Source: Solirubrobacterales bacterium (GTDB lineage Bacteria > Actinomycetota > Thermoleophilia > Solirubrobacterales > JACPNS01). Taken from it: a stretch of DNA of 64,000 bases. The notes beneath the pieces were generated by a model. It saw only the letters and a program-made list of their open reading frames with translations. It was not told the DNA's origin and searched no databases. Numbering within the stretch: the first letter of the stretch is position 1; each line of letters opens with the position of its first letter. The DNA is taken from contig JASGFX010000005.1 in assembly GCA_047605325.1 (NCBI GenBank), positions 2,561 to 66,560 of the forward strand, read 5' to 3'. This document shows positions 5,346-60,859 of the stretch, piece by piece. The translations under genes and the position numbers were made by a program.

Positions 5346-6769
5346 CGCTGCACCACGGACAGCCCGAAGGCGCGTCGCTCCGCAAGGCAGGACTCATCGG
5401 CATCGCTGTGATCGCGGTGCTCGTCTACTTCGCATTCACGAAGTCGATTCCGTTCACGCATGGCTACCAGGTCAACGCCTACTTCACCAACGCCGCAAAC
5501 ATTCAGCCGAAGGCTCAGGTGCGAATCGCCGGGGTAAAGGTAGGCACTGTCTCAAGCGTGCAGCGTGGCAACGGCGCTACGACCAAGGTCGTCATGGAGC
5601 TCGACAAGAAGGCGCTTCCGGTCTACCAGAACGCGGCCGCCAAGATTCGCTTCCGCATCTTTCTTGAAGGAAACCCGTTCATCGACCTCCAGCCAGGCAC
5701 TCCCGGCAGCAAGGAGATCAAATCGGGCGGCTCCATTCCGGTCGCCCAAACCGCTGGCCCGGTGCAGCTTGACCAGGTTCTCAGCGCAGTCAACAGCGAC
5801 TCGCGCAAGGGCCTCGAGTCGATCTTCACGGAGATCGGAACGGCTTTGAACACCAAGGGCACCGAAGAGGAGAACGCCACGCAGGAGGACGACGTCAAGG
5901 ATCTGACCGGCGCGCAGGCTCTCAACCGTGCGTTCCGCTACGGCCCCGACGGCTTCAAGGGCGGCGCGCGGGTGTTCGACGCCCTGATCGGTTACGGCGA
6001 TGACGACCAGCTCACGATCCTTCGCGGCATTCGTGATTTCAACACCGCCGTCAACGACCGCGAGGCGCAGTTGGTTCCGCTGATCGCCGACTTCGGTACC
6101 ACGATTGGCGCGTTCGCCGACGACGAGGAGGCGCTGCGCCAGGCGACCAAGCAGTTCTCGCGTCTTTCCTACGAGTCGTACCCGACGCTCGTGCAGCTCA
6201 ACAAACTTCTTCCGGCCCTCACGACTTGGAGCTACACGATCGCGCCGCAGCTGAAGGAAATCCCGGCGACCGTGCGCGCCGCCTATCCGTGGATCGAGCA
6301 GACGAATGACCTCATGGAGGCGCTCGACGATGGCACCGCCAAGCTCGCTCAGAACACCACGGAGCAGTTCGCGGTCGCGCAGGCTGGAACGAAGAAACTG
6401 CTTCCGCAGCTCGACAACGTTGCGCGCTGCTGGAACCACAACTGGTTCCCGACACTTAACGCCGTCGTGCCCGATGGATCGAACACTTCTGGCAAGGAGA
6501 ACTACAAGGAGTTCTGGTACTCACTGGTCGGCTGGAACAGCTCGACGCAGAACTTCACGTCGACTGGTCCTTACCTCCGACTGGGCTCCGGCTCGGCCGC
6601 GACCGTGACAACGCCGTCCGGCAAACTGTTCGGCCCGTCGGCCAACGCGCAGACTGGCACGAGCCCGAAGATCCTCTCGAGTGCGAACCCGCCGGTTCAG
6701 ACGAAGGTTTCTTGCTACAAAAATGCTGCGCCCAACCTCTCGCCTACCCCTGAGAGCGTGACTCCCTAA
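5342..6769 (+). CDS. MCE family protein 4 of 6
   Basis: 4-nt overlap with the previous gene. TM helix, then YQVNAYFTNAANIQPKAQVRIAGVKVGTVSSV. Confidence 0.8.
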   Translation: MTLHHGQPEGASLRKAGLIGIAVIAVLVYFAFTKSIPFTHGYQVNAYFTNAANIQPKAQVRIAGVKVGTVSSVQRGNGATTKVVMELDKKALPVYQNAAAKIRFRIFLEGNPFIDLQPGTPGSKEIKSGGSIPVAQTAGPVQLDQVLSAVNSDSRKGLESIFTEIGTALNTKGTEEENATQEDDVKDLTGAQALNRAFRYGPDGFKGGARVFDALIGYGDDDQLTILRGIRDFNTAVNDREAQLVPLIADFGTTIGAFADDEEALRQATKQFSRLSYESYPTLVQLNKLLPALTTWSYTIAPQLKEIPATVRAAYPWIEQTNDLMEALDDGTAKLAQNTTEQFAVAQAGTKKLLPQLDNVARCWNHNWFPTLNAVVPDGSNTSGKENYKEFWYSLVGWNSSTQNFTSTGPYLRLGSGSAATVTTPSGKLFGPSANAQTGTSPKILSSANPPVQTKVSCYKNAAPNLSPTPESVTP

Positions 6770-8085
6770 TGCACGGTTTGCGCAAAGCAATGAAGCGCTA
6801 CGGCGTGCACCTCGCGGCGATCGTGGTGCTCGTCGTGGTGTCGCTCGGTGTCGGTAGCTACATCCTCTCGCACCAGCGCCTGTATCTGCCCGCCTGGGTA
6901 CCGGTCATTGGGACCGACTTCTACACCGTGAACGCGCAGTTCACGAGTGCGCAGGCAGTCACGCCCGGTCAGGGGCAGACGGTCAACATCGCCGGAGTTC
7001 CTGTCGGCGAAATCGGCAGCGTCACTCTTGAAAACGGGACAGCCAACGTTCAGTTGAAGATCCGTCGCTCGCACGCGCCGATCTACAAGAACACGACGAT
7101 GCTGCTGCGCCCGAAGACGCCGCTGTCCGACATGTATGTCGACATGAAGCCGGGCGACCCGAGCGCGGGCGAGATCAAGGATGGCGGCACGGTTCCGCTG
7201 GCCAACACCAAGCCGACGGTCAACTTCGATGAGTTTCTCTCGCTCTTCGACGAGGACACTCGCGACTACTTCCAGAACCTCCTCACGGCGGCCGGCGAGG
7301 GCCTCGAGGGTCAGGGCGGAAACCTCCGCAATGGCTTCAAACGCTTCCCGACGACCGGCAAGTACGGCGTGCGCATCGTCAAGGAGCTGCAGAAGCGCCA
7401 CAAGAACATCAAGCGCGCGATCACGAATCTCGCGTTGCTCTCGAAGGCGCTCGGCGACAACTCGAAGGTGTTCGCTTCCCTGATCGACTCATCGAGCACG
7501 ACGTTCCGTACGTGGGCGAGCCAGCAGGAGTCGATCCGTCAGATCGTCCAGCTCGCGCCGGAAGCGTTTGGCAAGACAGCCGACGCAGCCGAGGCATCGA
7601 CGCCGGTCATTGAGGACAGCGCTGTCGCGTTCAAGAACCTTCAGCCGCTTGCCAAGAACCTCGGAGTTTCTTTGAAGAGCCTGCGCCCGTTCTTCAAGGA
7701 CCAGGCGCAGGTCACCAAAGATCACTTCATCCCGCTTGCCGAGGACTCGAAGCCGTTGCTGGAGGTTCTCAGTCCGGCCTCAACGAACCTCGCCAAGATG
7801 ACGCCTGACGCCGTCGCTGCCACCCAGTCTTTCAACCGACTTTTGAACATCGTCGGGTTCAACCCGAAGGGTTCAGAAGAGGGATATCTCTACTGGCTCT
7901 CATGGTTCAGCCATATTTCTGCGTCGAGTTTCAGCCGCGCCGATGCCAACGGCATCCTCTCGTCCGGTGCACTGGTCGCCTCATGCAAGGACTTGGGCAC
8001 TGCCGGCGCTGCGGCGCGAGGTGGAAACATCGTTTTCCCGCTTCTGGTCGGCCTCACAAATCTTCCGATCGACAAGGGCTGCTGA
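6769..8085 (+). CDS. MCE family protein 5 of 6
   Basis: 1-nt overlap with the previous gene. TM helix, then YTVNAQFTSAQAVTPGQGQTVNIAGVPVGEIGSV. Confidence 0.8.
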   Translation: MHGLRKAMKRYGVHLAAIVVLVVVSLGVGSYILSHQRLYLPAWVPVIGTDFYTVNAQFTSAQAVTPGQGQTVNIAGVPVGEIGSVTLENGTANVQLKIRRSHAPIYKNTTMLLRPKTPLSDMYVDMKPGDPSAGEIKDGGTVPLANTKPTVNFDEFLSLFDEDTRDYFQNLLTAAGEGLEGQGGNLRNGFKRFPTTGKYGVRIVKELQKRHKNIKRAITNLALLSKALGDNSKVFASLIDSSSTTFRTWASQQESIRQIVQLAPEAFGKTADAAEASTPVIEDSAVAFKNLQPLAKNLGVSLKSLRPFFKDQAQVTKDHFIPLAEDSKPLLEVLSPASTNLAKMTPDAVAATQSFNRLLNIVGFNPKGSEEGYLYWLSWFSHISASSFSRADANGILSSGALVASCKDLGTAGAAARGGNIVFPLLVGLTNLPIDKGC

Positions 8086-8089
8086 GTCA

Positions 8090-9691
8090 GTGATCAAGCG
8101 AGCACCAAGTCCTGCCCAGCTCATCGCGATGATCGTTTTCGCGTTCTCCTGCTTTGCACTGATCCTGTTCCTATGGGTTTCGTTCGGCGGCCCCGTGCCG
8201 CTGAAGCCCCAGGGATACCGTGTGAACGCGACATTCAACGAGGCGGTGCAGCTTGCCACTGAGGCTGATGTCCGGATCTCTGGCGTGCCGATCGGCAAGG
8301 TCAAGAAGGTCTATCCGGACCAGGGTCGCACCGAAGCAACTCTTGAGATTGAACCTCGCTACGCACCCCTGCCTGATGACGTAAAGGCGATCCTCCGCAG
8401 CAAGACACTTCTGGGCGAGACCTACGTCGAGCTATCCCCGGGAACCAAGGGTGCGCCGACGATTCCCGACCATGGGTCGATCCCAGCTGCCCAGGTCTCG
8501 AATCAGGTCCAGCTGGATGAAGTGATCCGCACGTTCGACCAGCCCACTCGCGAGGCGTTCGGCGACTGGCTTATTGGGCAGTCTGAGGCTGTCAAGGGTC
8601 ACGGAGATCAGCTAAACCAAGCCTTCGGTGTGCTCCCGATGTTCTTCACCGATAGCAACAACCTCATGGAGGTTCTGCACCGCCAGGACAAGGCGCTCTC
8701 GCGCGTCTTCCGCAACACTGCGACGATCTTCAAGGCGATCGACAGCCGGCCGGGCCAGCTGACCGACCTGATCATCGCATCGAACAACCTGCTGCGTGTG
8801 ACTGGTAACCGCAGTCAGCAGCTTGTGCAGACCTTCAACGAATTCCCCGAGTTTTTGCGCCAGACACGCCAGACGATCGCGGAGTTCCAGGATTTCTCGG
8901 ATGGCACTCAGAACCTGATTTCGAACACGAACGCATTTGCGGATGCATCCTCTCCGCTGATCAAGAAGTCCGTAAAAGCGGCTGACGACGCGCGTCAACT
9001 CGTGAGCAGTCTCGAGCCGATGCTCGACAAGGCGGATTCGGGACTGCCGGCTACGGACCAGTTCCTCACTCTCGCAAAGCCGACGTTGGCTCAGTTGGAT
9101 CCGTTTCTCGCGAACCTGAACCCCGTACTCGAATTCGTCGGCATGTACCAAAAGGAACTCACGGCATTTGCGGCTAACGATGCGGCAGCGTCACAGGCGC
9201 AGGCCACTATGTCTTCCACAAGATCGGGGCAAGCCTCTTTTGGGCACTACCTACGTGCGTTCACGATGTTTACCCCAGATTCACTCGCGTACTACCCGAA
9301 CAAGAGTGCGAAGACGCGATCAAACGCTTATCCGGTTCCCGGCTGGTACGACAAGCTCGCTTCCGGCCTCCAAGTATTCGACGCAGGCCAGTGTGGGACG
9401 ATCGCGGTTCCGCCCCTTGATCCGGATGACACGACCTACCTGAACCCACCACCTGGGGCAGTGCAACTCGCGCAAATCTTGCCGCAGATAAACCAGATCA
9501 TCTACGGCGGCAACTACACGCCGAATCCGACCAATCCCGTCGGAACGGCGGTATCCGCGAACCTCTCCCAGAGTCCAACCAATGCCGCAAACCTTCTTGC
9601 CCCCAACTGCTCCCAGCAACAGTCAATGACCTTCCAAGGCTCCTCGCTCCAGTTCCCGCACGTCAACCAGGGCACCAACGCCAATCCTTAG
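8090..9691 (+). CDS. MCE family protein 6 of 6
   Basis: Track ORF 7943-9691 trimmed to the in-frame GTG at 8090, 4 nt after the upstream stop. TM helix LIAMIVFAFSCFALILFLWV, then YRVNATFNEAVQLATEADVRISGVPIGKVKKV. Confidence 0.8.
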   Translation: MIKRAPSPAQLIAMIVFAFSCFALILFLWVSFGGPVPLKPQGYRVNATFNEAVQLATEADVRISGVPIGKVKKVYPDQGRTEATLEIEPRYAPLPDDVKAILRSKTLLGETYVELSPGTKGAPTIPDHGSIPAAQVSNQVQLDEVIRTFDQPTREAFGDWLIGQSEAVKGHGDQLNQAFGVLPMFFTDSNNLMEVLHRQDKALSRVFRNTATIFKAIDSRPGQLTDLIIASNNLLRVTGNRSQQLVQTFNEFPEFLRQTRQTIAEFQDFSDGTQNLISNTNAFADASSPLIKKSVKAADDARQLVSSLEPMLDKADSGLPATDQFLTLAKPTLAQLDPFLANLNPVLEFVGMYQKELTAFAANDAAASQAQATMSSTRSGQASFGHYLRAFTMFTPDSLAYYPNKSAKTRSNAYPVPGWYDKLASGLQVFDAGQCGTIAVPPLDPDDTTYLNPPPGAVQLAQILPQINQIIYGGNYTPNPTNPVGTAVSANLSQSPTNAANLLAPNCSQQQSMTFQGSSLQFPHVNQGTNANP

Positions 9692-9727
9692 GATCCCGGC
9701 TGCTCCACCGGCACCTCCGCAGCCGCA

Positions 9728-13889: not shown

Positions 13890-14426
13890 CTACTCGACGA
13901 CGATCCCCGGACCGTCGGTGGCGATCTCGACAATGTTGCCGTCGGGGTCGCGGAAGTAGATCGAGCTGTAGTACGTGCGGTTGATCGGCTCCGTCGCCTG
14001 GACGCCGTGCGCGTTCAGATGCTGATGCCAAGCGGTCAACTCTTCGAGCGAACCCGCGCGCAGCGCGAAGTGGTGGTTGACGCCGACGCCGATCGAGCCC
14101 TGCTCCATGTTCGGGTATTCCATGAACGTCACGAGCGAGCCAGGCGTGGCTTCGGCATCGCCGAAGTAGAAGTGGCGCGCGCCCGGGTCATCCTCGTTCT
14201 CGGCACGTTTGACCAACGTGAGGCCGAGCAGGTCGCGGTAGAAGCTCGTGGTGCGCTCGAGGTTTCCGCAGATCGCGGTGACGTGGTGGAGGCCGCGCAG
14301 ACGCAACTGAGGGGCTGCGGCGGACTCTGGGGCGGAGGAGGTCTCTGGCGTCGCCAGAGGCTCTGAGGTTGGCTCTGTGCTCACGAGAGAGAGCCTAACC
14401 GGATGGACGCGGGCGCTCGCGCCCAT
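13890..14426 (-). CDS. VOC (glyoxalase/bleomycin-resistance/ring-cleaving dioxygenase) family protein
   Basis: LHHVTAICGNLERTTSFYRDLLGL ... HHFAL ... SIYFRDPDGNIVEIATD are typical VOC beta-alpha-beta-beta-beta modules. The true start may lie downstream of the ORF start. Confidence 0.75.
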   Translation of the reverse strand: MGASARVHPVRLSLVSTEPTSEPLATPETSSAPESAAAPQLRLRGLHHVTAICGNLERTTSFYRDLLGLTLVKRAENEDDPGARHFYFGDAEATPGSLVTFMEYPNMEQGSIGVGVNHHFALRAGSLEELTAWHQHLNAHGVQATEPINRTYYSSIYFRDPDGNIVEIATDGPGIVVE

Positions 14427-46945: not shown

Positions 46946-47734
46946 ATGGGCATCCTCGAGGGCAAGAAGCTGCTGATCACTGGGGTTTTGACGCCCCAGT
47001 CGCTGGCTTTTCACGTGGCCCAGCGGGCGCAGGAGGAGGGGGCCGTCGTGGCTCTTTCGTCTTTTGGCCGGATGATGTCTTTGACTGAGCGCACGGCGAA
47101 TCGTCTTGACGGCGACGTCGCGCTTGTGGAATTGGATGTCAATGATGAGGAGCACCTGGCCGCGCTTCCGGCGGCGGTTGATGGGGCTCTTGGCGGATTG
47201 GACGGCGTGCTGCACGCGATCGCGTTCGCACCCGAAGACGCATTGGGCGGCAAGTTCATGAGCGCCCCGGCTGAAAGCGCCGAACTGGCGTTTCGCACTT
47301 CGGCCTACTCGTACAAAGCCGTCGCCGGCGCGCTTCTGCCGCTGCTCGAAAAGAGCGAAGGGGAGGCCTCGCTGGTCGGACTCGACTTCGACGCCACCGT
47401 CGCCTGGCCGATCTACGACTGGATGGGCGTGGCGAAGGCCGCGCTCGAGTCGGTCAACCGTTATCTGGCCCGCGATCTCGGCCCGTACGGCGTGCGCTCG
47501 AACCTCGTGAGCGCCGGCCCGCTGCGCACGATGGCGGCCAAGGGCATCCCCGGCTTCAAGGATCTCGCCGAAATGTGGCCCGCTCATGCGCCGCTCGGCT
47601 GGGACATCGAGGATCCGATCCCAGTCGCAAACACGGTCTGCTTCCTGCTTTCCGACCTCGCCAAGGCGATCAGCGGCGAGATCATCCACGTCGACGGCGG
47701 CTTCCACGCCATCGGCGCCCCCTCGCCCGAATAG
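46946..47734 (+). CDS. fabI: Enoyl-ACP reductase (FabI/InhA type)
   Basis: 262 aa SDR-like. LITGV near the N-terminus, YDWMGVAKAALES (Y-x6-K), GEIIHVDGG. Confidence 0.85.
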   Translation: MGILEGKKLLITGVLTPQSLAFHVAQRAQEEGAVVALSSFGRMMSLTERTANRLDGDVALVELDVNDEEHLAALPAAVDGALGGLDGVLHAIAFAPEDALGGKFMSAPAESAELAFRTSAYSYKAVAGALLPLLEKSEGEASLVGLDFDATVAWPIYDWMGVAKAALESVNRYLARDLGPYGVRSNLVSAGPLRTMAAKGIPGFKDLAEMWPAHAPLGWDIEDPIPVANTVCFLLSDLAKAISGEIIHVDGGFHAIGAPSPE

Positions 47735-47736
47735 CG

Positions 47737-47959
47737 GGCGGATTCAAGCCTCAAATCCTCCATGGTCTCTCCCGGAAGGGGAGACCATGGATCAAACACC
47801 CCTTGAACAAGCCAGATCCGCCTCCAACTCTGCGCGAAAAGCGCAAAGTTGGAGAGAAGATCGCCCGCAGAGAGCACCGCTGATCCTTCGTCGCAGGCGG
47901 CGAAGCCGCCCCAGCTCGACCACCTCCAGCCCAAACAAACCTCGCACGACGCCAGTCAA
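47737..47959. repeat. Half-copy (single module) of the structured intergenic repeat family
   Basis: CCATGGTCTCTCCC-GGAA-GGGGAGACCATGG, TCCAACTCTGCGCGAAAAGCGCAAAGTTGGA, GGCGGCGAAGCCGCC, CA-rich tract, terminal CACGACGCCAGTCAA. Confidence 0.75.
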
Positions 47960-48020
47960 CAACCAAACCAACCAGCGCCCCAAGGGAGGAAACCAGCCAC
48001 CCTCAAGGAAGGACACCCCG

Positions 48021-48782
48021 ATGAACGCAGCAGAAGCAGTGCGAAAGATGGGCTCGCCCGTGATCGAGTTCGATCAGGTGTCGAAGGTCTATGACGATGG
48101 CACCGTCGGTCTGGAAGGCGCCTCGACCGTGATCCGCGAGGGCGAATTCGTCTTCCTCGTCGGACCGACCGGGTGCGGAAAGTCGACCTTCATCCGTTTG
48201 ATGATGAAGGAGTTCGACGCCACCGACGGCCATCTCTACATCGCTGGCCGCGAGATCACGCACATGGATCCCAAGCGCGTGCCCTACCTGCGCCGCAACA
48301 TCGGCGCGGTGTTCCAGGACTTCAAGCTTCTGCCCAACCGCACGGTCTACGACAACGTCGCCTATTCGCTGCTCGTGACCGGGGCCAAGCGCGCCGAGAT
48401 CCGACAGAAAGTGCCGCACATCCTGCGCCTGGTCGGGCTTTCGACCAAGCTTCACAACTACCCCGACCAGCTCTCGGGCGGCGAGCAGCAGCGCGTCAGC
48501 ATCGCGCGCGCGTTCGTCAACCACCCGCCGCTGCTGATCTGTGACGAGCCGACCGGAAACCTCGACCCCGAGACCTCGCTCGGCATCATGCAGCTGATCT
48601 ACCGGATCAACCGCACGGGCACGACCGTCGTCGTGGCGACCCACGACAAGCAGATGGTCGACCGCATGCGCCGCCGCGTGATCGAGCTCAAGGACTCGCA
48701 CATCATCCGCGATGAGCGCGGCGCCGGCTACACGCGCGAATTTGACGCGATCAACGATACGCACCAGGTGGACGCCGCATGA
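48021..48782 (+). CDS. ftsE: Cell-division ABC ATPase FtsE
   Basis: Track ORF trimmed to the ATG at 48021, 8 nt after AAGGAAGGA. Walker [30 protein letters not shown]. Confidence 0.9.
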
Positions 48783-52804: not shown

Positions 52805-52805
<1 letters not shown>

Positions 52806-53290
52806 TGGCCAAGGGCAAGAAAAAGAAGGTCGACCCCGGCGACATCGCTACCAATCGCGAAGCACGCTTTCGCTATGAGCTCTCCGATCCGGTCGAAGCT
52901 GGGATCATGCTCGTCGGCAGCGAGGTCAAGTCGCTGCGCGAGGGCGGGGTACAGATGAAAGACGCCTACGCCGACGTCAAGGACGGCGAGGTCTGGCTGC
53001 GCAATCTCCACATCGCGCCGTACAAGTTCGCCGGCAACGAGAACCACGAGCCCGAGCGGCCGCGCAAGCTGCTGCTCCACCGCCGCGAGATCGACCGCAT
53101 CGTCGGCAAGCTCGCCGAGCGCGGTTACTCGTTGATTCCGACGCGTGTGTACTTCGCCAACGGCCGCGCAAAGGTCGAACTCGCTCTCGGTCGCGGCAAG
53201 GACGTCGGCGACAAGCGCCAAGCGATCAAAGAACGCGAGATGAAGCGAGAGATGGACCGCGCCGGGGCAGACTTCCGGCGCGGCCGCTGA
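52805..53290 (+). CDS. smpB: SsrA-binding protein
   Basis: IATNREARFRYEL, GSEVKSLR, LLLHRREI. TGATG overlap with rnr. Confidence 0.9.
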
Positions 53291-53296
53291 CTCTCT

Positions 53297-55021
53297 CTAT
53301 TTGCAGACCTTGAACTTCGCGGTCTTGGTCTGCACGCGCCCCTTGGGGAAGCTGCTGTCGACCTTGAAGTACACCTTGACCTTGTACTTGTAGGTCTTGC
53401 CGGCCTTCAGCTTGAGTTTGCTCGAGAGCTTGGCCTTCAGCTTGTAAGGCGACTTCGACGACTTCTTGACGTACTTGTTGTTGATCCAGAGCTTCGCGTA
53501 GCGCACGTGCGAGCGGGCCTTGATCGTCGGGGTCACGCTGAGCGTGGATCCCTTTTTCAGGCACTTGCTCACACTCTTGATCGACACGTTGTAGTTGAAG
53601 CAAGGGGGAGTCGTGTACTTGGTTGGTGAGTCGAACGACTGCACCTGGCCCTGGTAGCTCGTGATGTCGAAGTGCGTCGAGCCGCCGTCGACCGGAGTCG
53701 ATCCGTTGGTCGGGCACTTCTGCACCATCAGCAGGCCATTGTTGCCGCCCGCGATGCTCAGGTCGAAGGTCGAGAATCCGACGCCTGGAATGTTGTCGAA
53801 GGTCGTCTGGATCTGGTTGATGTTGACGAACTGGTTGGTGCCGCGGACGTTGAACTCGATCGCGCCCTTCACGTGGATCCCGAGATCCGGCAGGTTGTGT
53901 CCGGCCGAGGGTTTCACGAGATATGCCTCGCCGGAGAGACCGGCAGTGATCATCGGCGTCGTCAGGTGCACGGTGCCGACTTGGGTTGATGCCGGGCACT
54001 GGAACGCGGCGAAGGCCTCGTTGGTGCAGACGCGGCCGAGCTGGGCGACGTCGATCGTCAGGCCCTTGGGCAGCGTCGCGGTGACGGTCTTGGGCACAGC
54101 GGCTCCGATCGGGTCGGCGCCGAGGCCGTCGATCTTCAGCTGCGTTGAGAACGCCGCGTGGCCACCGCGAGTCGAGCCGTCGGCGTGCGCATCGGCGCCC
54201 ACGTTGAACGGGGCGAGCGTGTCGCAGTTGGGCTCGGTCGGCACGACGTCGGTCTTGAAATAGTCGTTCGTGCCGGTCTGGAACGGGTCGGAGTTGGCGC
54301 CGTCGTTGTTGTTGTAGAACTGCGCGTAGCCCCAGGAGTTCCAAGTGTCGCAGCGCGTCGGGTTGGTGATGAACACGTTGCCGTTGGCGAGCTTGCCGAA
54401 GAGCTTCTGCTCGTACTTGGTGATCTGCACTCGAGCCGAACCGAGGATCGTGTTTGCCGTCGTCGGGAACGGGTCGGTCTCTGCGCGGATGCGGAAGTCG
54501 CCGTCAGGGCCGGACGTGACCGGGTAGAACTTCGCGTACGCGCGGATCGGATCGCCGGCGTTGATGCCGCCGAGCTTGGGCTGGATGTACGCGCCGACGA
54601 CGGTGGGCACCTCGGGATCGGTCTGGATCTCTGAGATCGTGCCGGTCATGTCGGTGAGGTCGATCGGTAGAAGGCCGAAGATGTACGCCTTGGCGCTGAT
54701 TGTCACGACGCCGATCTGGCTCTTGGCGTCGCAGGTCGACGAGTCGAAGGTCTCGCGTGTACAGCGGTCCGCATAGGGGATCGCGTTCGGGTTGCCGACT
54801 CCGCCCGCGGGAAGATCGATCAGGATCTTCTTGACCGTCTCGCTGGTGTCGCTCCCGTAGTTGAAAGTGACGCCGGTCGTCAGGTCGCCGTGGCCGCCGG
54901 TCGCGGTGTCGGTGGTGCCGCCATAAGGCGTTGCAGTCACTGCTGCGAAGGTATTCGGCGCCGCCGCCAGGCAGCAGATGGATACGGCCAGAAGCGCAAT
55001 TCGCAGCTTGTTTGAAAACAC
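53297..55021 (-). CDS. Large secreted protein of unknown function, paralog A (574 aa)
   Basis: GTG start 8 nt after GGAGGA. Signal peptide ...NTFAA. Shares LPAGxxGNP, C...C-x-x-x-SQ[IV]G (twice), PTRCDxW[DN]S, FDN[IL]P and a Lys-rich C-terminal domain ending KFKVCK with 55174-57171 and 57501-59471. Confidence 0.75.
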   Translation of the reverse strand: MFSNKLRIALLAVSICCLAAAPNTFAAVTATPYGGTTDTATGGHGDLTTGVTFNYGSDTSETVKKILIDLPAGGVGNPNAIPYADRCTRETFDSSTCDAKSQIGVVTISAKAYIFGLLPIDLTDMTGTISEIQTDPEVPTVVGAYIQPKLGGINAGDPIRAYAKFYPVTSGPDGDFRIRAETDPFPTTANTILGSARVQITKYEQKLFGKLANGNVFITNPTRCDTWNSWGYAQFYNNNDGANSDPFQTGTNDYFKTDVVPTEPNCDTLAPFNVGADAHADGSTRGGHAAFSTQLKIDGLGADPIGAAVPKTVTATLPKGLTIDVAQLGRVCTNEAFAAFQCPASTQVGTVHLTTPMITAGLSGEAYLVKPSAGHNLPDLGIHVKGAIEFNVRGTNQFVNINQIQTTFDNIPGVGFSTFDLSIAGGNNGLLMVQKCPTNGSTPVDGGSTHFDITSYQGQVQSFDSPTKYTTPPCFNYNVSIKSVSKCLKKGSTLSVTPTIKARSHVRYAKLWINNKYVKKSSKSPYKLKAKLSSKLKLKAGKTYKYKVKVYFKVDSSFPKGRVQTKTAKFKVCK

Positions 55022-55109
55022 GTCTCAGTCCTCCAAGAAATCCGTTTCGCCGGCGAACACCCCGAACGCCGAACGAAAGGCGTATGCCCAAAAACGGGGA
55101 TCGTCAATC

Positions 55110-55146
55110 GCTTAAACGAAAACGGGGCCCGCGCGATGCGGGCCCC
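55110..55146 (-). terminator. Intrinsic terminator of paralog B
   Basis: Minus strand: GGGGCCCGC-AUCGC-GCGGGCCCC followed by GUUUUCGUUU. Confidence 0.75.
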
Positions 55147-55173
55147 GTCTCGGACAAGTGAGTCGTTTTGTGA

Positions 55174-57171
55174 CTACTTGCAGGTCTTGAACTTGTTGGT
55201 CTTCGTCTTGATGACGTGACCGTCCTTGTAGGTGACCTTGTAGCCGTAGTAGTAGGTCTTGTTCTTCTTGTAGGTGCTCTTCTTGAGAGTCAGCTTGAAG
55301 GAGAACGGGTTGGACGAGTCCTTGGCGCGGCTCTTGGTGCTGGAGGACTTGGAGCCCGTCAGCAGCTGCACGTTGGCGACCGTCGACTTGGCGATCAGGT
55401 TCTTCGGCGAAACGCTGAGCTTCTTGCCCTGCTTGACGCACTTGGTGACCTTGCCGGGGTTGTCCACGCCATAGCACGGAGCCAGTGAGGTGGCCGAGCT
55501 GCTCGAGGCGTTGGCGCCGGTGTAGCCGTTCATCGCGAAGGTGATCGGGCCATCATCCGGCGTGCTGCCGTCACCCGGGCACTTGCGGTTCAGCAGCAGC
55601 GAGTTGTTCGAGTCGCCACCGTTGATGTGGACCACGAAGCTGTCGAACGGCAGCGACGGGAGGTTGTCGAACGTGGTCTCGATCATGTTCGCGCTGGTGC
55701 CGACGAACTGGGTCGTGGCGTCGAGTCGGAACGTGAACGCGCCGGCCGGATCGTCGTTCGGGCCGTTGACCCAGATCGACAGGTACGGCAGACCCTGGGT
55801 GGCGCCGCGCGTCATGTACACGCGGCCGTGCTGCGTGGCGCTGAGCACCGGCGACGTGATGTCGGCGGTGCCGATCTGGCTGTTGGCCGGGCAGCTGTCG
55901 GTGACAAGCTGAGCCTGCTCACAGACGTTGCCGAGCGCAGCGGCGTTGACGGTGATCGTCGACGGCAGCGTCGTGACCAACTTCTTGGTCTTGTCGCGGT
56001 CGTCCGAGTTCGGGTTTGCGATGTTGACCGTCAGACCGGGGTATGCGCCGCGGGCGTTGTTGTCGACGGCCGCGGTGGCGCCGGCGGTCAGTGCGGGCTT
56101 GCTTCCGCTGCAGTCAGCAGTGGTGGGAGCAGAGTCGAACTCGGCGTACGAGCCGCTGCTGTCTCCGCCGCCCGGGTTTGCGGTGCCCTCGAGGGTGTGC
56201 GTCTGGGAATCGGTGCCGTGGGCGGCCACAACCTCGTTGCCAACTGGTCCGCTCGTGCCGTAGGTGCGCGCGTAGAGCGTTGAGTCCCAGTCACCGCACG
56301 TGGTCGGGTTGGTCTGGAACGCTGAGACTGCGGCGGAGTTGCCGTGCTCGCGTGGGTCGCCCCAGAGGCTCTGGGTGATTCCGGTGATCGCGCCGGTCAG
56401 CGAGTTGTCGGCGAGGCCGGCGGCCGGGCTGAGGTCCGGACGATCGATCAGCTCGGAGACTGAACGCAGGCGGTAGTCGCCCTGCGGTCCGCTGGTCACC
56501 GGAGCGATCTGAGTGCGCGAAAGTGCCGCAACGACGCAGTTGGTCTCAAGCGAGAGTGCGGCGCAGTTGGTCGAGGTCGTTTCGAACACGGTGAAGAGGG
56601 TCGTGGGGACCTCCTGCAGCGGGTCGGCCGACTGAACGACGTAGATCTTGCCGTCGAGGACCTTTGTGGCGATGCCACCGGCACCGGGGTCGTCCTTGAG
56701 GGTGAGGGTTGCGGTTCCGACCTGGGCGGAGGCGGGGCACTGTGCACCCGGCATCGGGCCATAGCCCGGCTTGAGCGCGTTCTTCTGGTACGAGCGCATC
56801 TGATCCTGGGTGCAGCGCGCAGCGAATGGAATCGCGCGTGGGTTGCCGTAGAAGCCGGCCGGCGTGTCGAGGATCCACTGCTTCAGGTCGTCGCCCGTGC
56901 GGCCAAAGCCGTCGTAGCAAGGGTTCGGGTAGGGCGGCACGGAAAGCGTGCAGCCGCTCGGGCTGCTCGGCATGCCGTCATAGGCATAGTGGTGGGTGAC
57001 GGTGAGGTCGCTGTGCGCGCCGGGCGTCGGGTCATCGAAACTGACGTCCACTCCGCTGCCGGCGGTGATGAAGTCTGCATTCGCAGCAGCAGGCATGACA
57101 AATGCCGCAAGCGCGGCGGCGGCCACGACGGCCAGACACAACCTCAGGCGAGTTGCCTTTGGACGGTTCAT
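55174..57171 (-). CDS. Large secreted protein of unknown function, paralog B (665 aa)
   Basis: ATG preceded by GGAGGA. Signal peptide ...PAAANA. Same motif set as paralog A. C-terminus KFKTCK. Confidence 0.75.
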   Translation of the reverse strand: MNRPKATRLRLCLAVVAAAALAAFVMPAAANADFITAGSGVDVSFDDPTPGAHSDLTVTHHYAYDGMPSSPSGCTLSVPPYPNPCYDGFGRTGDDLKQWILDTPAGFYGNPRAIPFAARCTQDQMRSYQKNALKPGYGPMPGAQCPASAQVGTATLTLKDDPGAGGIATKVLDGKIYVVQSADPLQEVPTTLFTVFETTSTNCAALSLETNCVVAALSRTQIAPVTSGPQGDYRLRSVSELIDRPDLSPAAGLADNSLTGAITGITQSLWGDPREHGNSAAVSAFQTNPTTCGDWDSTLYARTYGTSGPVGNEVVAAHGTDSQTHTLEGTANPGGGDSSGSYAEFDSAPTTADCSGSKPALTAGATAAVDNNARGAYPGLTVNIANPNSDDRDKTKKLVTTLPSTITVNAAALGNVCEQAQLVTDSCPANSQIGTADITSPVLSATQHGRVYMTRGATQGLPYLSIWVNGPNDDPAGAFTFRLDATTQFVGTSANMIETTFDNLPSLPFDSFVVHINGGDSNNSLLLNRKCPGDGSTPDDGPITFAMNGYTGANASSSSATSLAPCYGVDNPGKVTKCVKQGKKLSVSPKNLIAKSTVANVQLLTGSKSSSTKSRAKDSSNPFSFKLTLKKSTYKKNKTYYYGYKVTYKDGHVIKTKTNKFKTCK

Positions 57172-57434
57172 TTAGGTTTCCTCCGTTCACGCCCTGACGC
57201 GCTCCCCAGCGATCGTCGAGCGGATGTTCATTCGACGTCTCGGCCTCGCAAGGTCGAAACACTCCCTTGATACTGCAACCTACTGGACTTCCGGGACAGT
57301 TTGCGATTTCTCTCACAACTGTCCAGTTGGTCACTAAGTAACAGTCCTGTCACTAACTTCAACGATAGAACACGGACCTGTCAAGAAGGTTTCGGCGGAC
57401 TAGCCCATTTGTGTTAATTGCGCGCTAAACGCCA

Positions 57435-57470
57435 GAAAAAACGCCCCCGGTGGAATCTCCACCGGGGGCG
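57435..57470 (-). terminator. Intrinsic terminator of paralog C
   Basis: Minus strand: CGCCCCCGGUGGA-GAU-UCCACCGGGGGCG followed by UUUUUUC. Confidence 0.8.
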
Positions 57471-57500
57471 TTTGGAGTGACGGATCGCCGTCGGATTTCG

Positions 57501-59471
57501 TCAGCGACAAACCCGGAAGAAGGCGCTGCCCGTGTTGAGCACCGTGCCGTCCTTGTAGGTCACGCGGTAGGCGAAGCGGTAACGCCATCCGCGGTTGTAG
57601 AGCTTGCGCGAGATCGTGTGGCGCAGCGCGAACGGCGAGGAGCCGCGGCTGGCGCGGGTGCGCATGCCCTTTCTGTTGTGGCCGATCCGTACTTCGACGC
57701 GCCTGACCAGCGCCGCCGAGCGCAGGCCCTGCGGAGTGAAGGTCGCCGAGCGGTTGAGGCGCAGACAGCTGTTGCGGGTCGCCGGGGTCGACACGCCGTA
57801 GCACGGCTTCATCGAGGTGGCCGAGCTCGAGGCGGTGGCGCTGCCGCCCCAGCCGGTGGTTGCGAATGTGATCGGTCCGTCGGCCGGCAGCGAGCCGTCG
57901 GCCGGGCACTTGCGGTTGAGCAGCAGCGAGGTGGCCGACGAACCGCCAGTGATGTTCACGGTGAAGTCCGTGAACGGCGTCTGGGGGAGATTGTCGAACG
58001 TGGTCTCGATCATGTTCGCGCTCGGGCCGACGAACTGGGTCGTGGCGTCGAGTCGGAACTTCACCGCTCCGTCGACGAAGATCGAGAGGTAGGGGAGGCC
58101 TGCCGTGGCGCCCTTGGTGATGTACACGCGCCCGGTCAGACCGGCCGCGATCAGCGGGGTGGAGATCGTCGCGGTACCGACCTGGCTGGCGGCCGGGCAG
58201 GTGTCCGCGGCGAGGTCGGTGTCCGAGCAGACGTTGGTCAGCGCGTTGACGTTGATGCTGACCGATGCGGGCAGCGTCGTGATCATCTTCTTGGGCTGTT
58301 GGTGGTCGGACGGGTCGCTGTCGGCGACCTTGATCGAAAGCGACGGGTAGGCTCCGCGCTCACCGCTGCCGAGCGTGCCCGTGCTGCTGGCTCCGATCGT
58401 TGGCATCTGCGCGCAGTCGCTGCCACTGGGCGTCACTGAGTCGGTGTTGGAGGTCTGGTAGTTGTTGTCGCCGGGGTGGTTTGGGTCCATTGCGGTCGAC
58501 CCACCAGTCGGGTTGGCCCAGTCGATTGCGTATGACTTTGAATCCCAGCTGTCGCAACGGGTGGGCATCGTCAGGAACGGCGTGTCGCCTTGGCCGGCGG
58601 TCGGGAAGTTGTCGTTGGGGTCGACGAGGCCATAGAGGTGCTGATCGATCCGGCGAATGTGCAGGGGGGTACCGCCAGAGCCGAGGCCAGGATGGCCGTA
58701 GGCGGTGGGCAGCAGCGCCGACGGTGGATTTGTGTACTCGGCTGGAATCGTGCGGATTCGGAAGTCAGTTACATCGTCCAGGTCGGCGGAGCGATTCGTG
58801 ACCGGGGCGAGCACGCTTTTTGTCTTAGGCTGGATCAAGCATGGCGTTCCGGGGGCCGTCGTGCACGTGTTGCCCCCGTAGGCTGAGAAGTCGAAGTTCT
58901 GGTACGAGGCGCTGGTGAAGAGCGTGCCGAGCGTGGTCGGAACCTCCGGGTCGGTTTTGAGGATGTAGATCTTGCCCACCATCGGGCCGCTGAGGGCGGA
59001 CATGTCTTGGCCCGCAAGAATGCACTGGAGCGGCGCTGCAGGGCATGTACCCGAGTTGGCGTCGTTCACGAGGTAGACCTTCGCCTCTCCAACCTGCGAC
59101 GAAGCCGGACACGAGCCCGTGAAGAAGGTGTTGTACGCAGCGGCGGCTCCCGGTGTCGGGTCGAATGAGGCCGGGTCGCAGCGATCTGCTTCGGGAACCG
59201 CATTCGGGTTTCCGACCAGGCCTGCCGGCGAGTCGACGACCCACTTCTTGAGATCCTGACCGGCTCCTGTCGAGGCGGTCGGTTCAGGCCCATTGCCGTA
59301 CTCGAACTCCTGGATGATCGTGTAGTCGGTGTGCGCACCGGGCACTGTCGAGCCGTAGACCGTCGAGGCCTCGGTGGTGATGCCGAATGCCGATGGTACG
59401 AAGACGACGATCGCTGTGATCAGCGTCGCGACAATGCTCAGGCAAAGGCGAGCTGCCTTTGATGGCGTCAT
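57501..59471 (-). CDS. Large secreted protein of unknown function, paralog C (656 aa)
   Basis: Track ORF trimmed to the ATG at 59471, preceded by GGAAGGA. Signal peptide ...PSAFG. Same motif set as paralogs A and B. C-terminus FFRVCR. Confidence 0.75.
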   Translation of the reverse strand: MTPSKAARLCLSIVATLITAIVVFVPSAFGITTEASTVYGSTVPGAHTDYTIIQEFEYGNGPEPTASTGAGQDLKKWVVDSPAGLVGNPNAVPEADRCDPASFDPTPGAAAAYNTFFTGSCPASSQVGEAKVYLVNDANSGTCPAAPLQCILAGQDMSALSGPMVGKIYILKTDPEVPTTLGTLFTSASYQNFDFSAYGGNTCTTAPGTPCLIQPKTKSVLAPVTNRSADLDDVTDFRIRTIPAEYTNPPSALLPTAYGHPGLGSGGTPLHIRRIDQHLYGLVDPNDNFPTAGQGDTPFLTMPTRCDSWDSKSYAIDWANPTGGSTAMDPNHPGDNNYQTSNTDSVTPSGSDCAQMPTIGASSTGTLGSGERGAYPSLSIKVADSDPSDHQQPKKMITTLPASVSINVNALTNVCSDTDLAADTCPAASQVGTATISTPLIAAGLTGRVYITKGATAGLPYLSIFVDGAVKFRLDATTQFVGPSANMIETTFDNLPQTPFTDFTVNITGGSSATSLLLNRKCPADGSLPADGPITFATTGWGGSATASSSATSMKPCYGVSTPATRNSCLRLNRSATFTPQGLRSAALVRRVEVRIGHNRKGMRTRASRGSSPFALRHTISRKLYNRGWRYRFAYRVTYKDGTVLNTGSAFFRVCR

Positions 59472-59713
59472 GGTGGGTTCCTTCCAGTTAGACCCGGTGC
59501 ACGCTCCCCAGCGCCAGTCCGAGCAATCGTTTGTGAGCTGCCCTGGCGCATCCGCGCCAGACAAACCGTTCTGACTGAAACCTACCGCGATTCGAGGACG
59601 GCTGACACGATCGCGGAAGTGTCTTTGCGGTCACTTGGTACGGCGGCTTGGGGGCGGTCGGTGAGTAGGATCACTGTCGCATCAAAAACTGAATAGATGC
59701 ACCTCACACACAC

Positions 59714-60068
59714 GGGGACGCCAGGTTTCGACGCGGCCGATTTCGTGGGTGGAGTTGCGAGCCGAGGTTGTCTGGAGGCCTCGTTAAACCCCAGGCAAAA
59801 CCATAAATGCGGACTCTCACGAGTACGCCCTCGTCTAAATAGACTGAGGCATCCGTCCAGCCTGGGCCCGTGGGCTGGGTAGCGGGTGTCAGCCAACGGG
59901 CTTGACCGAAGCGCGCGCATCAGGCGCCCGGTGACATTCAACTGACGCTGGCTCTCCCGGACCCTGCCGGCCTGGCTAACGGAGAGCGAGATCCAGAAAG
60001 CCGGACACGCTCGTAGACGCTTTATTCCACGCGGTTGCGGACGCGGGTTCAATTCCCGCCGTCTCCAC
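59714..60068 (+). ncRNA. ssrA: tmRNA (SsrA)
   Basis: 5' GGGGACGCCAGGUUUCGAC. 3' GGACGCGGGUUCAAUUCCCGCCGUCUCCA, a T-arm plus an acceptor stem with the G3:U pair. CCA is not fully encoded. Tag ORF GCG GAC UCU CAC GAG UAC GCC CUC GUC UAA at 59809-59838. Confidence 0.9.
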
Positions 60069-60146
60069 TTTGGGTCGCTGACTCGCACGTATTCGCCGAT
60101 GCTCGGGCTCCGGACTTTGGTGCCTTGTAGCGCTTATACTGAACTA

Positions 60147-60431
60147 ATGGCGACACAAACGAAGAAGCGCGTTTCGGTTGGGGTTCGTGAGCTTCACAAT
60201 CGGACCAGCGCCTTGATGCAGATGGTCGAGGACGGTGCCGAGATTGAAATCACCAAGCACGGCAAAGTCCTTGGAGTGCTGCGGCCGTCGGTTCCAGATG
60301 CGTTTTACGAGAGGCTCAAGTCGGAGGGGCGCATTCGAGAGGCTCGCGTTCGCGACGACTGGGTGCCAGAGCCGATTGCGCTTCCGCCGGGCGTCACGAT
60401 TTCGGACTTGATTGACGAGCAGCGCCGCTGA
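60147..60431 (+). CDS. Type II antitoxin (Phd/YefM-like; VapB role)
   Basis: Track ORF trimmed to the ATG at 60147, which sits 6 nt after a TATACT -10-like hexamer, so the transcript may be leaderless. VRELHNRTSALMQMVEDGAEIEITKHGKVLGVL is a typical Phd/YefM N-terminus. Confidence 0.7.
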   Translation: MATQTKKRVSVGVRELHNRTSALMQMVEDGAEIEITKHGKVLGVLRPSVPDAFYERLKSEGRIREARVRDDWVPEPIALPPGVTISDLIDEQRR

Positions 60432-60859
60432 TCGTCTACTTCGACAGCTCGGCGTTGGCCAAACTCATGCTTCCGGAGGATGGGAGCGATTGGGCTCGCG
60501 CCTGCTGGGCGCAGTCGGAGGCGCGTCTGGCTTCGAGTCTCGCCTACGTCGAAGTTCGCGCGGCTCTGGCCGCGGCTCGCAGGTCGGGCCGGCTGACGAA
60601 AGCCCTGCACGTCCGCGCCAAGCGGGAATTCGAATCGATCTGGGAGCGGATCGACGAGTGCGAACCGACCATTGAGGTGATCGCCGCTGCGGCCGGATTG
60701 GCAGAGCTCCACTCGTTGCGCGGCTACGACGCGGTGCACCTCGCGACGTCCGTGCATGAATACCGACACGAGCCGCTCTTCATGCTCACTTGGGATCAAC
60801 ATCTCGCCCGCGCGAGCCATGATGCAGGGGTCAACGTGATCCACACCCACGACGCGTAA
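60428..60859 (+). CDS. vapC: PIN-domain toxin (VapC)
   Basis: The conserved N-terminus (L)IVYFDSSAL, with the first catalytic Asp, lies upstream of the first ATG (60455). The only candidate start is CTG at 60428, overlapping the antitoxin stop as CTGA. Further acidic residues at EV and GYDAVHLA. Confidence 0.6.
   Translation: MIVYFDSSALAKLMLPEDGSDWARACWAQSEARLASSLAYVEVRAALAAARRSGRLTKALHVRAKREFESIWERIDECEPTIEVIAAAAGLAELHSLRGYDAVHLATSVHEYRHEPLFMLTWDQHLARASHDAGVNVIHTHDA

Follow-up and report, generated by a model that had tools for sequence, protein, structure and literature searches.

Paired-cysteine, two-module proteins with a polybasic C-terminal domain: candidate surface proteins of a Solirubrobacterales bacterium

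Introduction

What are the three related proteins encoded side by side between smpB and the transfer-messenger RNA (tmRNA) gene of a Solirubrobacterales bacterium, and what could hold them at the cell? The host is a soil actinobacterium (Actinomycetota, class Thermoleophilia), and the window, i.e. the whole 64,000-nt stretch of contig JASGFX010000005.1 that we analysed, carries their genes as tandem paralogs on the minus strand. We call the central one (55174-57171) B and its neighbours A and C. B is identical to the NCBI entry 'MAG: hypothetical protein QM648_02975 [Solirubrobacterales bacterium]' (MAG, metagenome-assembled genome) and C corresponds to QM648_02980. Although Solirubrobacterales occur commonly in the sampled soil and environmental metagenomes, the order is barely characterised, and we know of nothing reported about its cell surface.

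A sequence-only reading of the locus had described the three proteins as two homologous halves with a cysteine-pair motif, followed by a basic, disulfide-bracketed C-terminal domain that might attach to anionic wall polymers. Here we find an architecture that is well supported: a signal peptide, two copies of one module and a Cys-bracketed polybasic beta domain. As for its meaning, we give an even chance to the reading that A, B and C leave the cell by the Sec route, are stabilised by disulfides and stay at the cell surface because their basic tail holds them on the anionic envelope.

Results

Two diverged copies of one module

The three paralogs share 31-37% pairwise identity from end to end (BLASTP, E 1e-69 to 1e-136), and a six-frame scan of the window with a hidden Markov model (HMM) of the family returns these three copies only. 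All of the half-start motifs and shared blocks named in the sequence-only reading were recovered by regular expression, at the expected kind of position. First and second halves begin respectively with GGHGDLT and GGHAAFS in A, GAHSDLT and GAYPGLT in B, and GAHTDYT and GAYPSLS in C; the further blocks are DPEVPT (in B the variant DPLQEVPT), D[FY]R[IL]R, PTxCxxW[DN]S, TTFDN[IL]P and LL[LM]x[RQ]KCP. The cysteine motif takes the form C-x(9-24)-C-[PD]-A-x-x-Q-[IV]-G. Its earlier version, CPxxSQ[IV]G with Ser or Thr before the Gln, holds for both cysteines, invariant in 31 of 31 full-length relatives, but not for that Ser/Thr position, which is Ala in the first copy of B (CPASAQVG).

Along module a of B these elements follow one another as GAHSDLT, DTPAG..GNP, C120-x24-C145PASAQVG, DPLQEVPT, DYRLR and PTTC292GDWDS...C354; along module b, as GAYPGLT, TLPS, C417-x9-C427PANSQIG, TTFDNLP and LLLNRKC531P...C566. 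Copy b spans about 210 residues, and copy a is longer through insertions. These are lineage-specific and could bind ligands.

Family profiles built on an alignment of the 31 full-length relatives bear out the proposed duplication. Local comparison of the N-half and C-half profiles by hhalign gives a probability of 94.9% with E 4.5e-8. The global alignment (E 8.6e-9) extends over 141 columns and reaches from the first strand as far as G-x-[IV]-Y; within it, GAHSDLTV falls on GAYPGLTV, and the LP/PAG segments, Cys pairs and G-x-[IV]-Y strands of the two halves coincide. Likewise, an HMM of the second half matches the first halves of A (8e-7) and B (1e-3). BLASTP self-comparison finds no internal repeat alignments, the duplication being visible to profile methods only, and the tails of the halves (residues 185-362 and 455-572 of B) share no detectable sequence homology (hhalign probability 0.5%).

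Cysteines are gained and lost in pairs

The number of mature cysteines is 10, 12 or 14 in all 31 full-length relatives and never odd, and cysteine columns are gained or lost only as sequence-adjacent pairs (Table 1). Such pairwise gain and loss is strong evolutionary evidence for a 1-2, 3-4, ... connectivity. A, B and C thus have the properties of disulfide proteins: their cysteines are conserved, co-vary in pairs and come in even mature numbers. The cysteine pair that the sequence-only reading assigned to each half is confirmed, but each module holds two pairs rather than one. The first cysteine of the second pair sits in PTxCxxW in the first half and in LLxxRKCP in the second half; we consider the second pairs equivalent because of paired-cysteine evolution, strand counts and the four-module consensus, not because of sequence homology.

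The rule extends to much larger relatives, which have 80 cysteines in 20 modules and 48 in 12, i.e. four per module, and across the superfamily sets 89-100% of proteins have an even cysteine count. Actinobacteria oxidise exported cysteines, which is consistent with a disulfide reading, and we infer from the sequences that the disulfides do form in A, B and C. Each module would then be locked by two local disulfides, and the terminal domain would be closed by one between its first and penultimate residues.

Confident all-beta models without a close solved relative

Structure prediction could have returned low-confidence disorder; the AlphaFold2 models, made with the 31-sequence alignment, are confident instead. 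Full-length B reaches a mean predicted local distance difference test (pLDDT) score of 81.9 and a predicted template modelling (pTM) score of 0.74. The model is wholly beta save for short helices in the Cys-pair loops, with 12 strands in the first half and 13 in the second, and low pLDDT is limited to the signal peptide (below 50 over residues 1-31) and a few loops. Module b alone, a 13-strand beta sandwich, is modelled with pLDDT 89.2 and pTM 0.85.

Foldseek matches of the full B model in the PDB are only generic multi-domain arrays of immunoglobulin (Ig), FN3 and macroglobulin domains, with template modelling (TM) scores of about 0.1-0.2; those in BFVD are likewise generic. The top full-length matches, the macroglobulin arrays of complement C3/C5 and bacterial alpha-2-macroglobulin, are strings of beta-sandwich domains as B is. 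The likeness is generic, however: the TM-score is about 0.12, the root-mean-square deviation exceeds 30 Å, and A, B and C lack the thioester motif C[GL]EQ.

For module b, no PDB match reaches E 1e-3 (best E 3.5e-3). The best ones are a type II cohesin, YcnI/DUF1775, BslA, ACE19 and Gram-positive pilins, with query TM-scores of at most 0.43; Foldseek probabilities to cohesin, YcnI, ACE19 and pilins are 0.97-1.0, with weak E-values, and together with the confident all-beta models they place the module in the Ig-like fold class. With YcnI/DUF1775 (7me6, 8um6) and type II cohesins (2y3n), module b shares an Ig-like Greek-key sandwich core at a target TM-score of up to 0.66. Unlike them, it is about 80 residues larger, carries four conserved cysteines and has no sequence match to any PDB chain; the comparison itself stays at E 3.5e-3 or above, query TM-scores of 0.32-0.43 and 8-9% identity. 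The weak scores point to an Ig-like sandwich without a close solved relative.

Three chemical features were considered and rejected. A Thr-Gln ester bond between GAH-x-D-x-T and the Gln of CPxxSQVG fails since Gln and His are not conserved in distant modules. The conserved His lies about 20 residues past the predicted cleavage site and is absent from b modules, at odds with a YcnI-like N-terminal-His copper site. Thioester and heme motifs are absent from A, B and C.

A C-terminal domain conserved in charge

From its first bracket cysteine to the end of the protein, the C-terminal domain is exactly 88 residues long in A, B and C. AlphaFold2 predicts seven strands with pLDDT 93-96, in line with the beta fold suggested earlier. 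In B, the DSSP assignment has an isolated beta-bridge at residue 579, beside C578, and places C664 directly after the last strand, a modelled pattern compatible with an intradomain staple.

Lys and Arg together number 27 in A, 22 in B and 21 in C. The isoelectric point (pI) of the domain is 10.5, 10.2 and 12.0, and that of the remainder of each protein is 4.5-5.0. In B the 88 residues include 21 Lys, 1 Arg, 2 Asp and no Glu; in C the domain is Arg-rich (18 Arg, 3 Lys). Among the 31 relatives only the two bracket cysteines and one Pro are invariant, net charge ranges from +16 to +27, and Lys and Arg counts are strongly anticorrelated (r = -0.95). This trade-off at steady net charge indicates that positive charge is conserved rather than any particular residue. 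The description of the last 90 residues or so as basic and bracketed by cysteines therefore stands; 'Lys-rich' does not apply to C.

Across the superfamily the last 80 residues have a median net charge of +13 to +19 over an acidic body, and nearly all members have a polybasic C-terminus. The tails are of several unrelated sequence types, the Cys-bracketed one occurring, by local HMM search, only in the two-module subfamily. By phmmer, residues 600-648 of B (about 55228-55374, minus strand) bear a weak, non-significant likeness to antibody kappa constant domains (E 0.0055 to 1), which also end in Cys. It fits an Ig-like fold and is a curiosity, no evidence of homology.

An uncatalogued module repeated 2 to 33 times

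No known family claims the repeats. Pfam-A 2025 gives only sub-threshold noise on A, B and C (PA14 and DUF7311, 15 bits each), NCBIfam r20 and PHROGs v4 give nothing, and the family profile finds nothing among PDB sequences at E up to 1. Pfam has no real match on seven distant and eight giant relatives either, and our literature searches found no description of the family.

Searched against 1.84 billion representative proteins, the family profile collects 3,562 clusters at E <=1e-3, 2,166 at E <=1e-10 and 540 at E <=1e-30. The duplicated unit proposed earlier is thereby not only confirmed but extended: it is a stand-alone repeat module of about 210 residues with four cysteines, present in 2 to 33 copies in thousands of proteins. 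Besides two-module proteins like A, B and C, there are a very large four-module group (900-1,150 residues) and giants with a period of about 210 residues, among them proteins of 7,161 residues with 33 modules, 6,729 residues, 4,362 residues with 20 modules and 2,614 residues with 12 modules. The giants P0060 (7161 residues), P0066 (6729), P0083 (4362), P0064 and P0082 each have a signal peptide, 12-33 consecutive modules and a polybasic C-terminal region; P0060 has a close relative, MBI4897769.1, in an 'Actinobacteria bacterium' MAG. With two modules, A, B and C are the shortest members of the superfamily; at its other extreme, up to 33 copies of the module make up fibril-length proteins with a like basic C-terminus.

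Every named source of the module is a MAG of Solirubrobacterales or other Actinomycetota. When a four-module alignment was used for a second, word-indexed search, 1,775 proteins were recovered; all are 'hypothetical', and those with a named source all come from Solirubrobacterales or Solirubrobacteraceae. GTDB species representatives contributed 33 loci, each from a MAG labelled Solirubrobacterales, Thermoleophilaceae, Conexibacter, Actinomycetes or Actinomycetota. Around one four-module homolog (P0228, locus L035), a DsbA-family oxidoreductase is encoded at a distance of about 7 kb and a 1,150-residue PKD-domain protein is adjacent (1791-2666 and 6251-9703); another homolog (L036) is surrounded by a run of unannotated large open reading frames (ORFs).

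A conserved array beside the tmRNA gene

In the eight loci with two-module genes (L001-L008), these genes invariably occur in tandem sets of two or three. The array lies beside the tmRNA gene in all six loci that include one (L001, L004-L008), whose tmRNA tag peptide, ADSHEYALV, is identical to that of the window; in L001 smpB is on its other side, as here. Two orthogroups can be told apart: a long type, B/C-like, adjoins the tmRNA gene, and a short type, A-like, adjoins smpB in the window and in L001. As every array has at least one gene of each type, this conservation points to a native, long-standing gene pair and suggests that the long and short types act together.

Terminator-like hairpins followed by U-runs lie downstream of B and C (Table 1); they were missed by a consensus promoter/terminator scan and found by direct folding. 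With these hairpins and a Shine-Dalgarno sequence before each gene, A, B and C look like separate transcription units. The hairpin after C implies an own promoter for B in the 329-nt spacer; the consensus scan shows no convincing sigma-70-type promoter.

Two minor observations concern related loci. Between two intact A-type genes of L001 there are short ORF fragments (13923-14376) with matches to module b and the basic C-terminal domain. They resemble the remains of one more paralog and would point to ongoing duplication and loss in the array. In L006, ARAGORN reports a second, permuted 'tmRNA*' (6733-7422), with an implausible tag of 20 residues and an overlap with the normal tmRNA; this is probably a false positive.

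Table 1. Positions of the genes, protein parts, cysteine pairs and signals at the array; residue numbers refer to B.
Feature	Position	Strand	Details
Gene B	55174-57171	-	665 residues; signal peptide, module a, module b, basic C-terminal domain
Paralog A	53297-55021	-	574 residues; short type; adjoins smpB; architecture as in B
Paralog C	57501-59471	-	656 residues from ATG at 59471 after GAAGGA Shine-Dalgarno; long type; adjoins tmRNA gene
Sec-type signal peptide of B, residues 1-32	57076-57171	-	MNRPKATRLRLCLAVVAAAALAAFVMPAAANA; predicted cleavage after A-N-A
Module a of B, residues 33-360	56092-57075	-	first copy, with longer insertions; motif and profile comparison
Module b of B, residues 361-570	55462-56091	-	second copy; HMM, AlphaFold2 model, Foldseek
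Polybasic C-terminal beta domain of B, residues 571-665	55177-55461	-	C578 at 55438-55440; penultimate C664 at 55180-55182
Cys pair 120, 145 (module a, first)	56716-56814	-	C120...C145-P-A-S-A-Q-V-G; both in 31/31 relatives
Cys pair 292, 354/355 (module a, second)	56110-56298	-	both in 27/31; both missing in the other 4
Cys pair 417, 427 (module b, first)	55870-55923	-	C417EQAQLVTDSC427PANSQIG; 31/31
Cys pair 531, 566 (module b, second)	55474-55581	-	31/31
Cys pair 578, 664 (C-terminal domain brackets)			31/31
Cys pair 203-206, 212			22/31
Cys pair in insertion after 168			5/31
Cys pair 74, 85			4/31
Terminator-like hairpin and U-run, downstream of B	55108-55150	-	folding free energy (dG) -29.2 kcal/mol, z -5.0
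Terminator-like hairpin and UUUUUU, downstream of C	57428-57478	-	dG -34.1 kcal/mol, z -6.5
smpB	52805-53290	+	flanks the array on the A side
tmRNA gene (ssrA)	59714-60068	+	flanks the array on the C side

Discussion

We now propose how A, B and C could work at the cell surface. After export, an actinobacterial oxidoreductase would form the disulfides sequentially, giving rigid domains that resist protease and stress. The acidic two-module body (pI about 4.5-5) would point outward, and the polybasic C-terminal domain would stick non-covalently to anionic envelope components, either wall polymers or membrane lipids.

Electrostatic retention is favoured because the basic C-terminus is the only feature that could hold these proteins at the cell. 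The last 60 residues contain none of the sortase motifs LPxT[GA], NPxTG, LAxTG, NPQTN and LPxGA, and there is no Gram_pos_anchor match; SLH, LysM, GW, choline-binding, PG_binding and SLAP domains give no Pfam match even at E up to 1. There is no C-terminal transmembrane segment, as the sole hydrophobic 19-mer of B is its signal peptide. The lipobox [LVI][ASTVI][GAS]C is absent from the signal peptides of all three, which have a Cys early in the hydrophobic core (VSICC, RLRLC, ARLC), followed by over 12 more hydrophobic residues and an AxA-type end.

Non-covalent attachment through a basic region has precedents. The cell-wall-binding domain of Lactobacillus surface-layer (S-layer) proteins and the GW modules of Listeria InlB bind (lipo)teichoic acids; like the domain described here, they are terminal, strongly basic regions of exported proteins without a covalent anchor, and electrostatic attachment to anionic polymers is what we propose for A, B and C. 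They differ in having no sequence relationship to this Cys-bracketed 88-residue beta domain, for which binding is only proposed. The position of the basic domain also fits an anchor: Gram-positive surface proteins typically attach through their C-terminus and bind their targets through the N-terminal part (PMC8286594). Roughly half of the fibrillar-adhesin-like proteins lack any recognised anchor, from which the authors of that survey infer undiscovered anchor types (PMC8286594); the basic C-terminus is a candidate for one of them.

The resemblance to fibrillar-adhesin-like Gram-positive proteins (PMC8286594) goes further: an N-terminal signal peptide, tandem beta-sandwich modules with internal covalent bonds and a C-terminal attachment element, and, in the superfamily, proteins of 2,000-7,000 residues with 12-33 modules. 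In contrast, A, B and C have only two modules, no known stalk, adhesive or anchor domain in Pfam and no LPXTG motif, and disulfides would take the place of isopeptide or ester bonds. In that survey, fibrillar adhesins are proteins with an adhesive domain besides repeats of known stalk domains; no recognised stalk domain is found here, and the module, repeated 2-33 times, is uncatalogued.

Several points weigh against this reading. Homology points to no location or ligand for A, B and C. The neighbouring genes, housekeeping ones (ftsEX, the S41 peptidase gene, the RNase R gene, smpB and ssrA), give no functional clue, nor do the varied gene neighbourhoods of four-module homologs, which show no recurrent partners. 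Codon usage in the three genes is ordinary, without a mark of very high expression. Searched alone, the C-terminal domain hit nothing on other protein types, but that search did not return even its own family and is uninformative, probably through failure of the word prefilter on a Lys-rich sequence; the modularity of the domain as an anchor is unproven. Two modules are too short for a 'stalk', so that the proteins of the window may differ in role from their giant relatives. Finally, we know of no description of the anionic wall polymers of Solirubrobacterales.

What else could a polybasic, Cys-bracketed terminus be for? The charge data would apply equally if A, B and C were secreted matrix or adhesion proteins whose basic domain attaches to anionic matter outside the cell (extracellular DNA, exopolysaccharide, clay or humic surfaces) instead of their own wall. 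The sequences of these lineages stem mostly from soil or other environmental metagenomes, and the several unrelated tail types suggest selection for generic charge, not for a specific wall ligand. We regard this as unlikely, given the C-terminal anchoring and N-terminal binding typical of Gram-positive surface proteins (PMC8286594) and that nothing else in the protein would keep it at the cell. Lower still we place a two-component S-layer or sheath, in which long and short types co-assemble as a lattice and acidic bodies and basic tails also make subunit contacts. The presence of both types in every array would suit it, as would the apparently monocistronic organisation of the genes, which have good Shine-Dalgarno sequences and strong terminators and, in the case of B, a long 5' spacer. 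The acidic, Thr/Ser/Gly/Ala-rich composition with a basic cell-binding end recalls Lactobacillus S-layer proteins, and the N. maritimus S-layer is among the generic Foldseek matches. Yet classical S-layer proteins are Cys-poor, no bias for high expression shows in the codon usage, and the proteins of 2,000-7,000 residues made from the same module look like fibres rather than lattice subunits; there is no SLH or SLAP match, and our literature search found no mention of an S-layer in Thermoleophilia.

Instead of a staple within the domain, C578 and C664 could form intermolecular bonds, head-to-tail or between A-type and B/C-type proteins, giving a covalent fibre or pilus-like polymer. Both cysteines are invariant and at the extreme ends of the domain; the kappa chain, whose constant domain it faintly resembles, uses its C-terminal Cys to join the heavy chain, and conserved tandem paralogs recall pilin gene clusters. 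We think this improbable: all other cysteines behave as local intradomain pairs, the DSSP pattern would allow a staple within the domain, the neighbourhood has no sortase or pilin-assembly genes, and the kappa-chain similarity is not significant. The notion that the array is mobile-element or prophage cargo, such as phage-derived Ig-like decoration or tail proteins, arises from its place next to ssrA, a classical integration hotspot, from a weak Phd/PIN toxin-antitoxin pair nearby and from BFVD matches that include phage tail proteins with Ig or FN3 domains. It is effectively refuted. The array is on the 5' side of ssrA, which disfavours a recently acquired island, since islands integrate at the 3' end; its position is kept among genomes whose proteins are only 40-60% identical. 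In GC content and codon usage the genes are native, there is no PHROG match, the viral Foldseek matches are generic (query TM-score at most 0.22), and the flanking ORFs include no integrase-like product.

If A, B and C are indeed surface proteins held by charge, the superfamily may have a wider meaning. Tentatively, and with some doubt, we suggest that the module and the polybasic domains form an unrecognised surface system of Solirubrobacterales and other Actinomycetota, in which proteins of 2-33 modules sit on a new, purely electrostatic and sortase-independent class of anchor, the long and short pair by the tmRNA gene forming the core structural part of the envelope in an abundant, almost unstudied soil lineage. 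Repetitive beta-sandwich surface proteins and basic wall-binding regions are known in kind, and no new biological principle is involved. What is new is a large, uncatalogued, lineage-specific domain family with a clean rule set (four cysteines per module, an acidic body and a polybasic C-terminus, the last of which may be an unrecognised anchor class). This is enough to seed a new domain entry, with which thousands of proteins, 7,000-residue giants included, could be annotated as exported surface proteins.

Neighbouring genes and other features of the window

On one side of the array, Pfam confirms ftsE, ftsX, a gene for an S41/PDZ peptidase, the RNase R gene and smpB; the array separates smpB from ssrA, the two partners of trans-translation. 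In GC content and codon usage, A, B and C do not differ from the rest of the window. Plus-strand GC skew rises up to +0.12 over 54001-60000, across the three minus-strand paralogs, and is about 0 elsewhere. It fits their Thr/Ser/Gly/Ala/Asp/Asn-rich composition and not a foreign origin, because third-position GC content (GC3) and codon choice are ordinary.

In the ORF listed for FtsE (47586-48782, plus strand), the ABC-transporter domain begins only at residue 177 and the 170 residues before it are rich in Arg, Pro and Ser, so translation probably begins at a codon far downstream of the listed start. Immediately 3' of the tmRNA gene are two small plus-strand ORFs (60099-60431 and 60455-60859) with sub-threshold Pfam matches to a Phd/YefM antitoxin (E 3.6e-4) and a PIN domain (E 1e-4). 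They may represent a type II toxin-antitoxin pair, the remnant of an element that used ssrA as its target.

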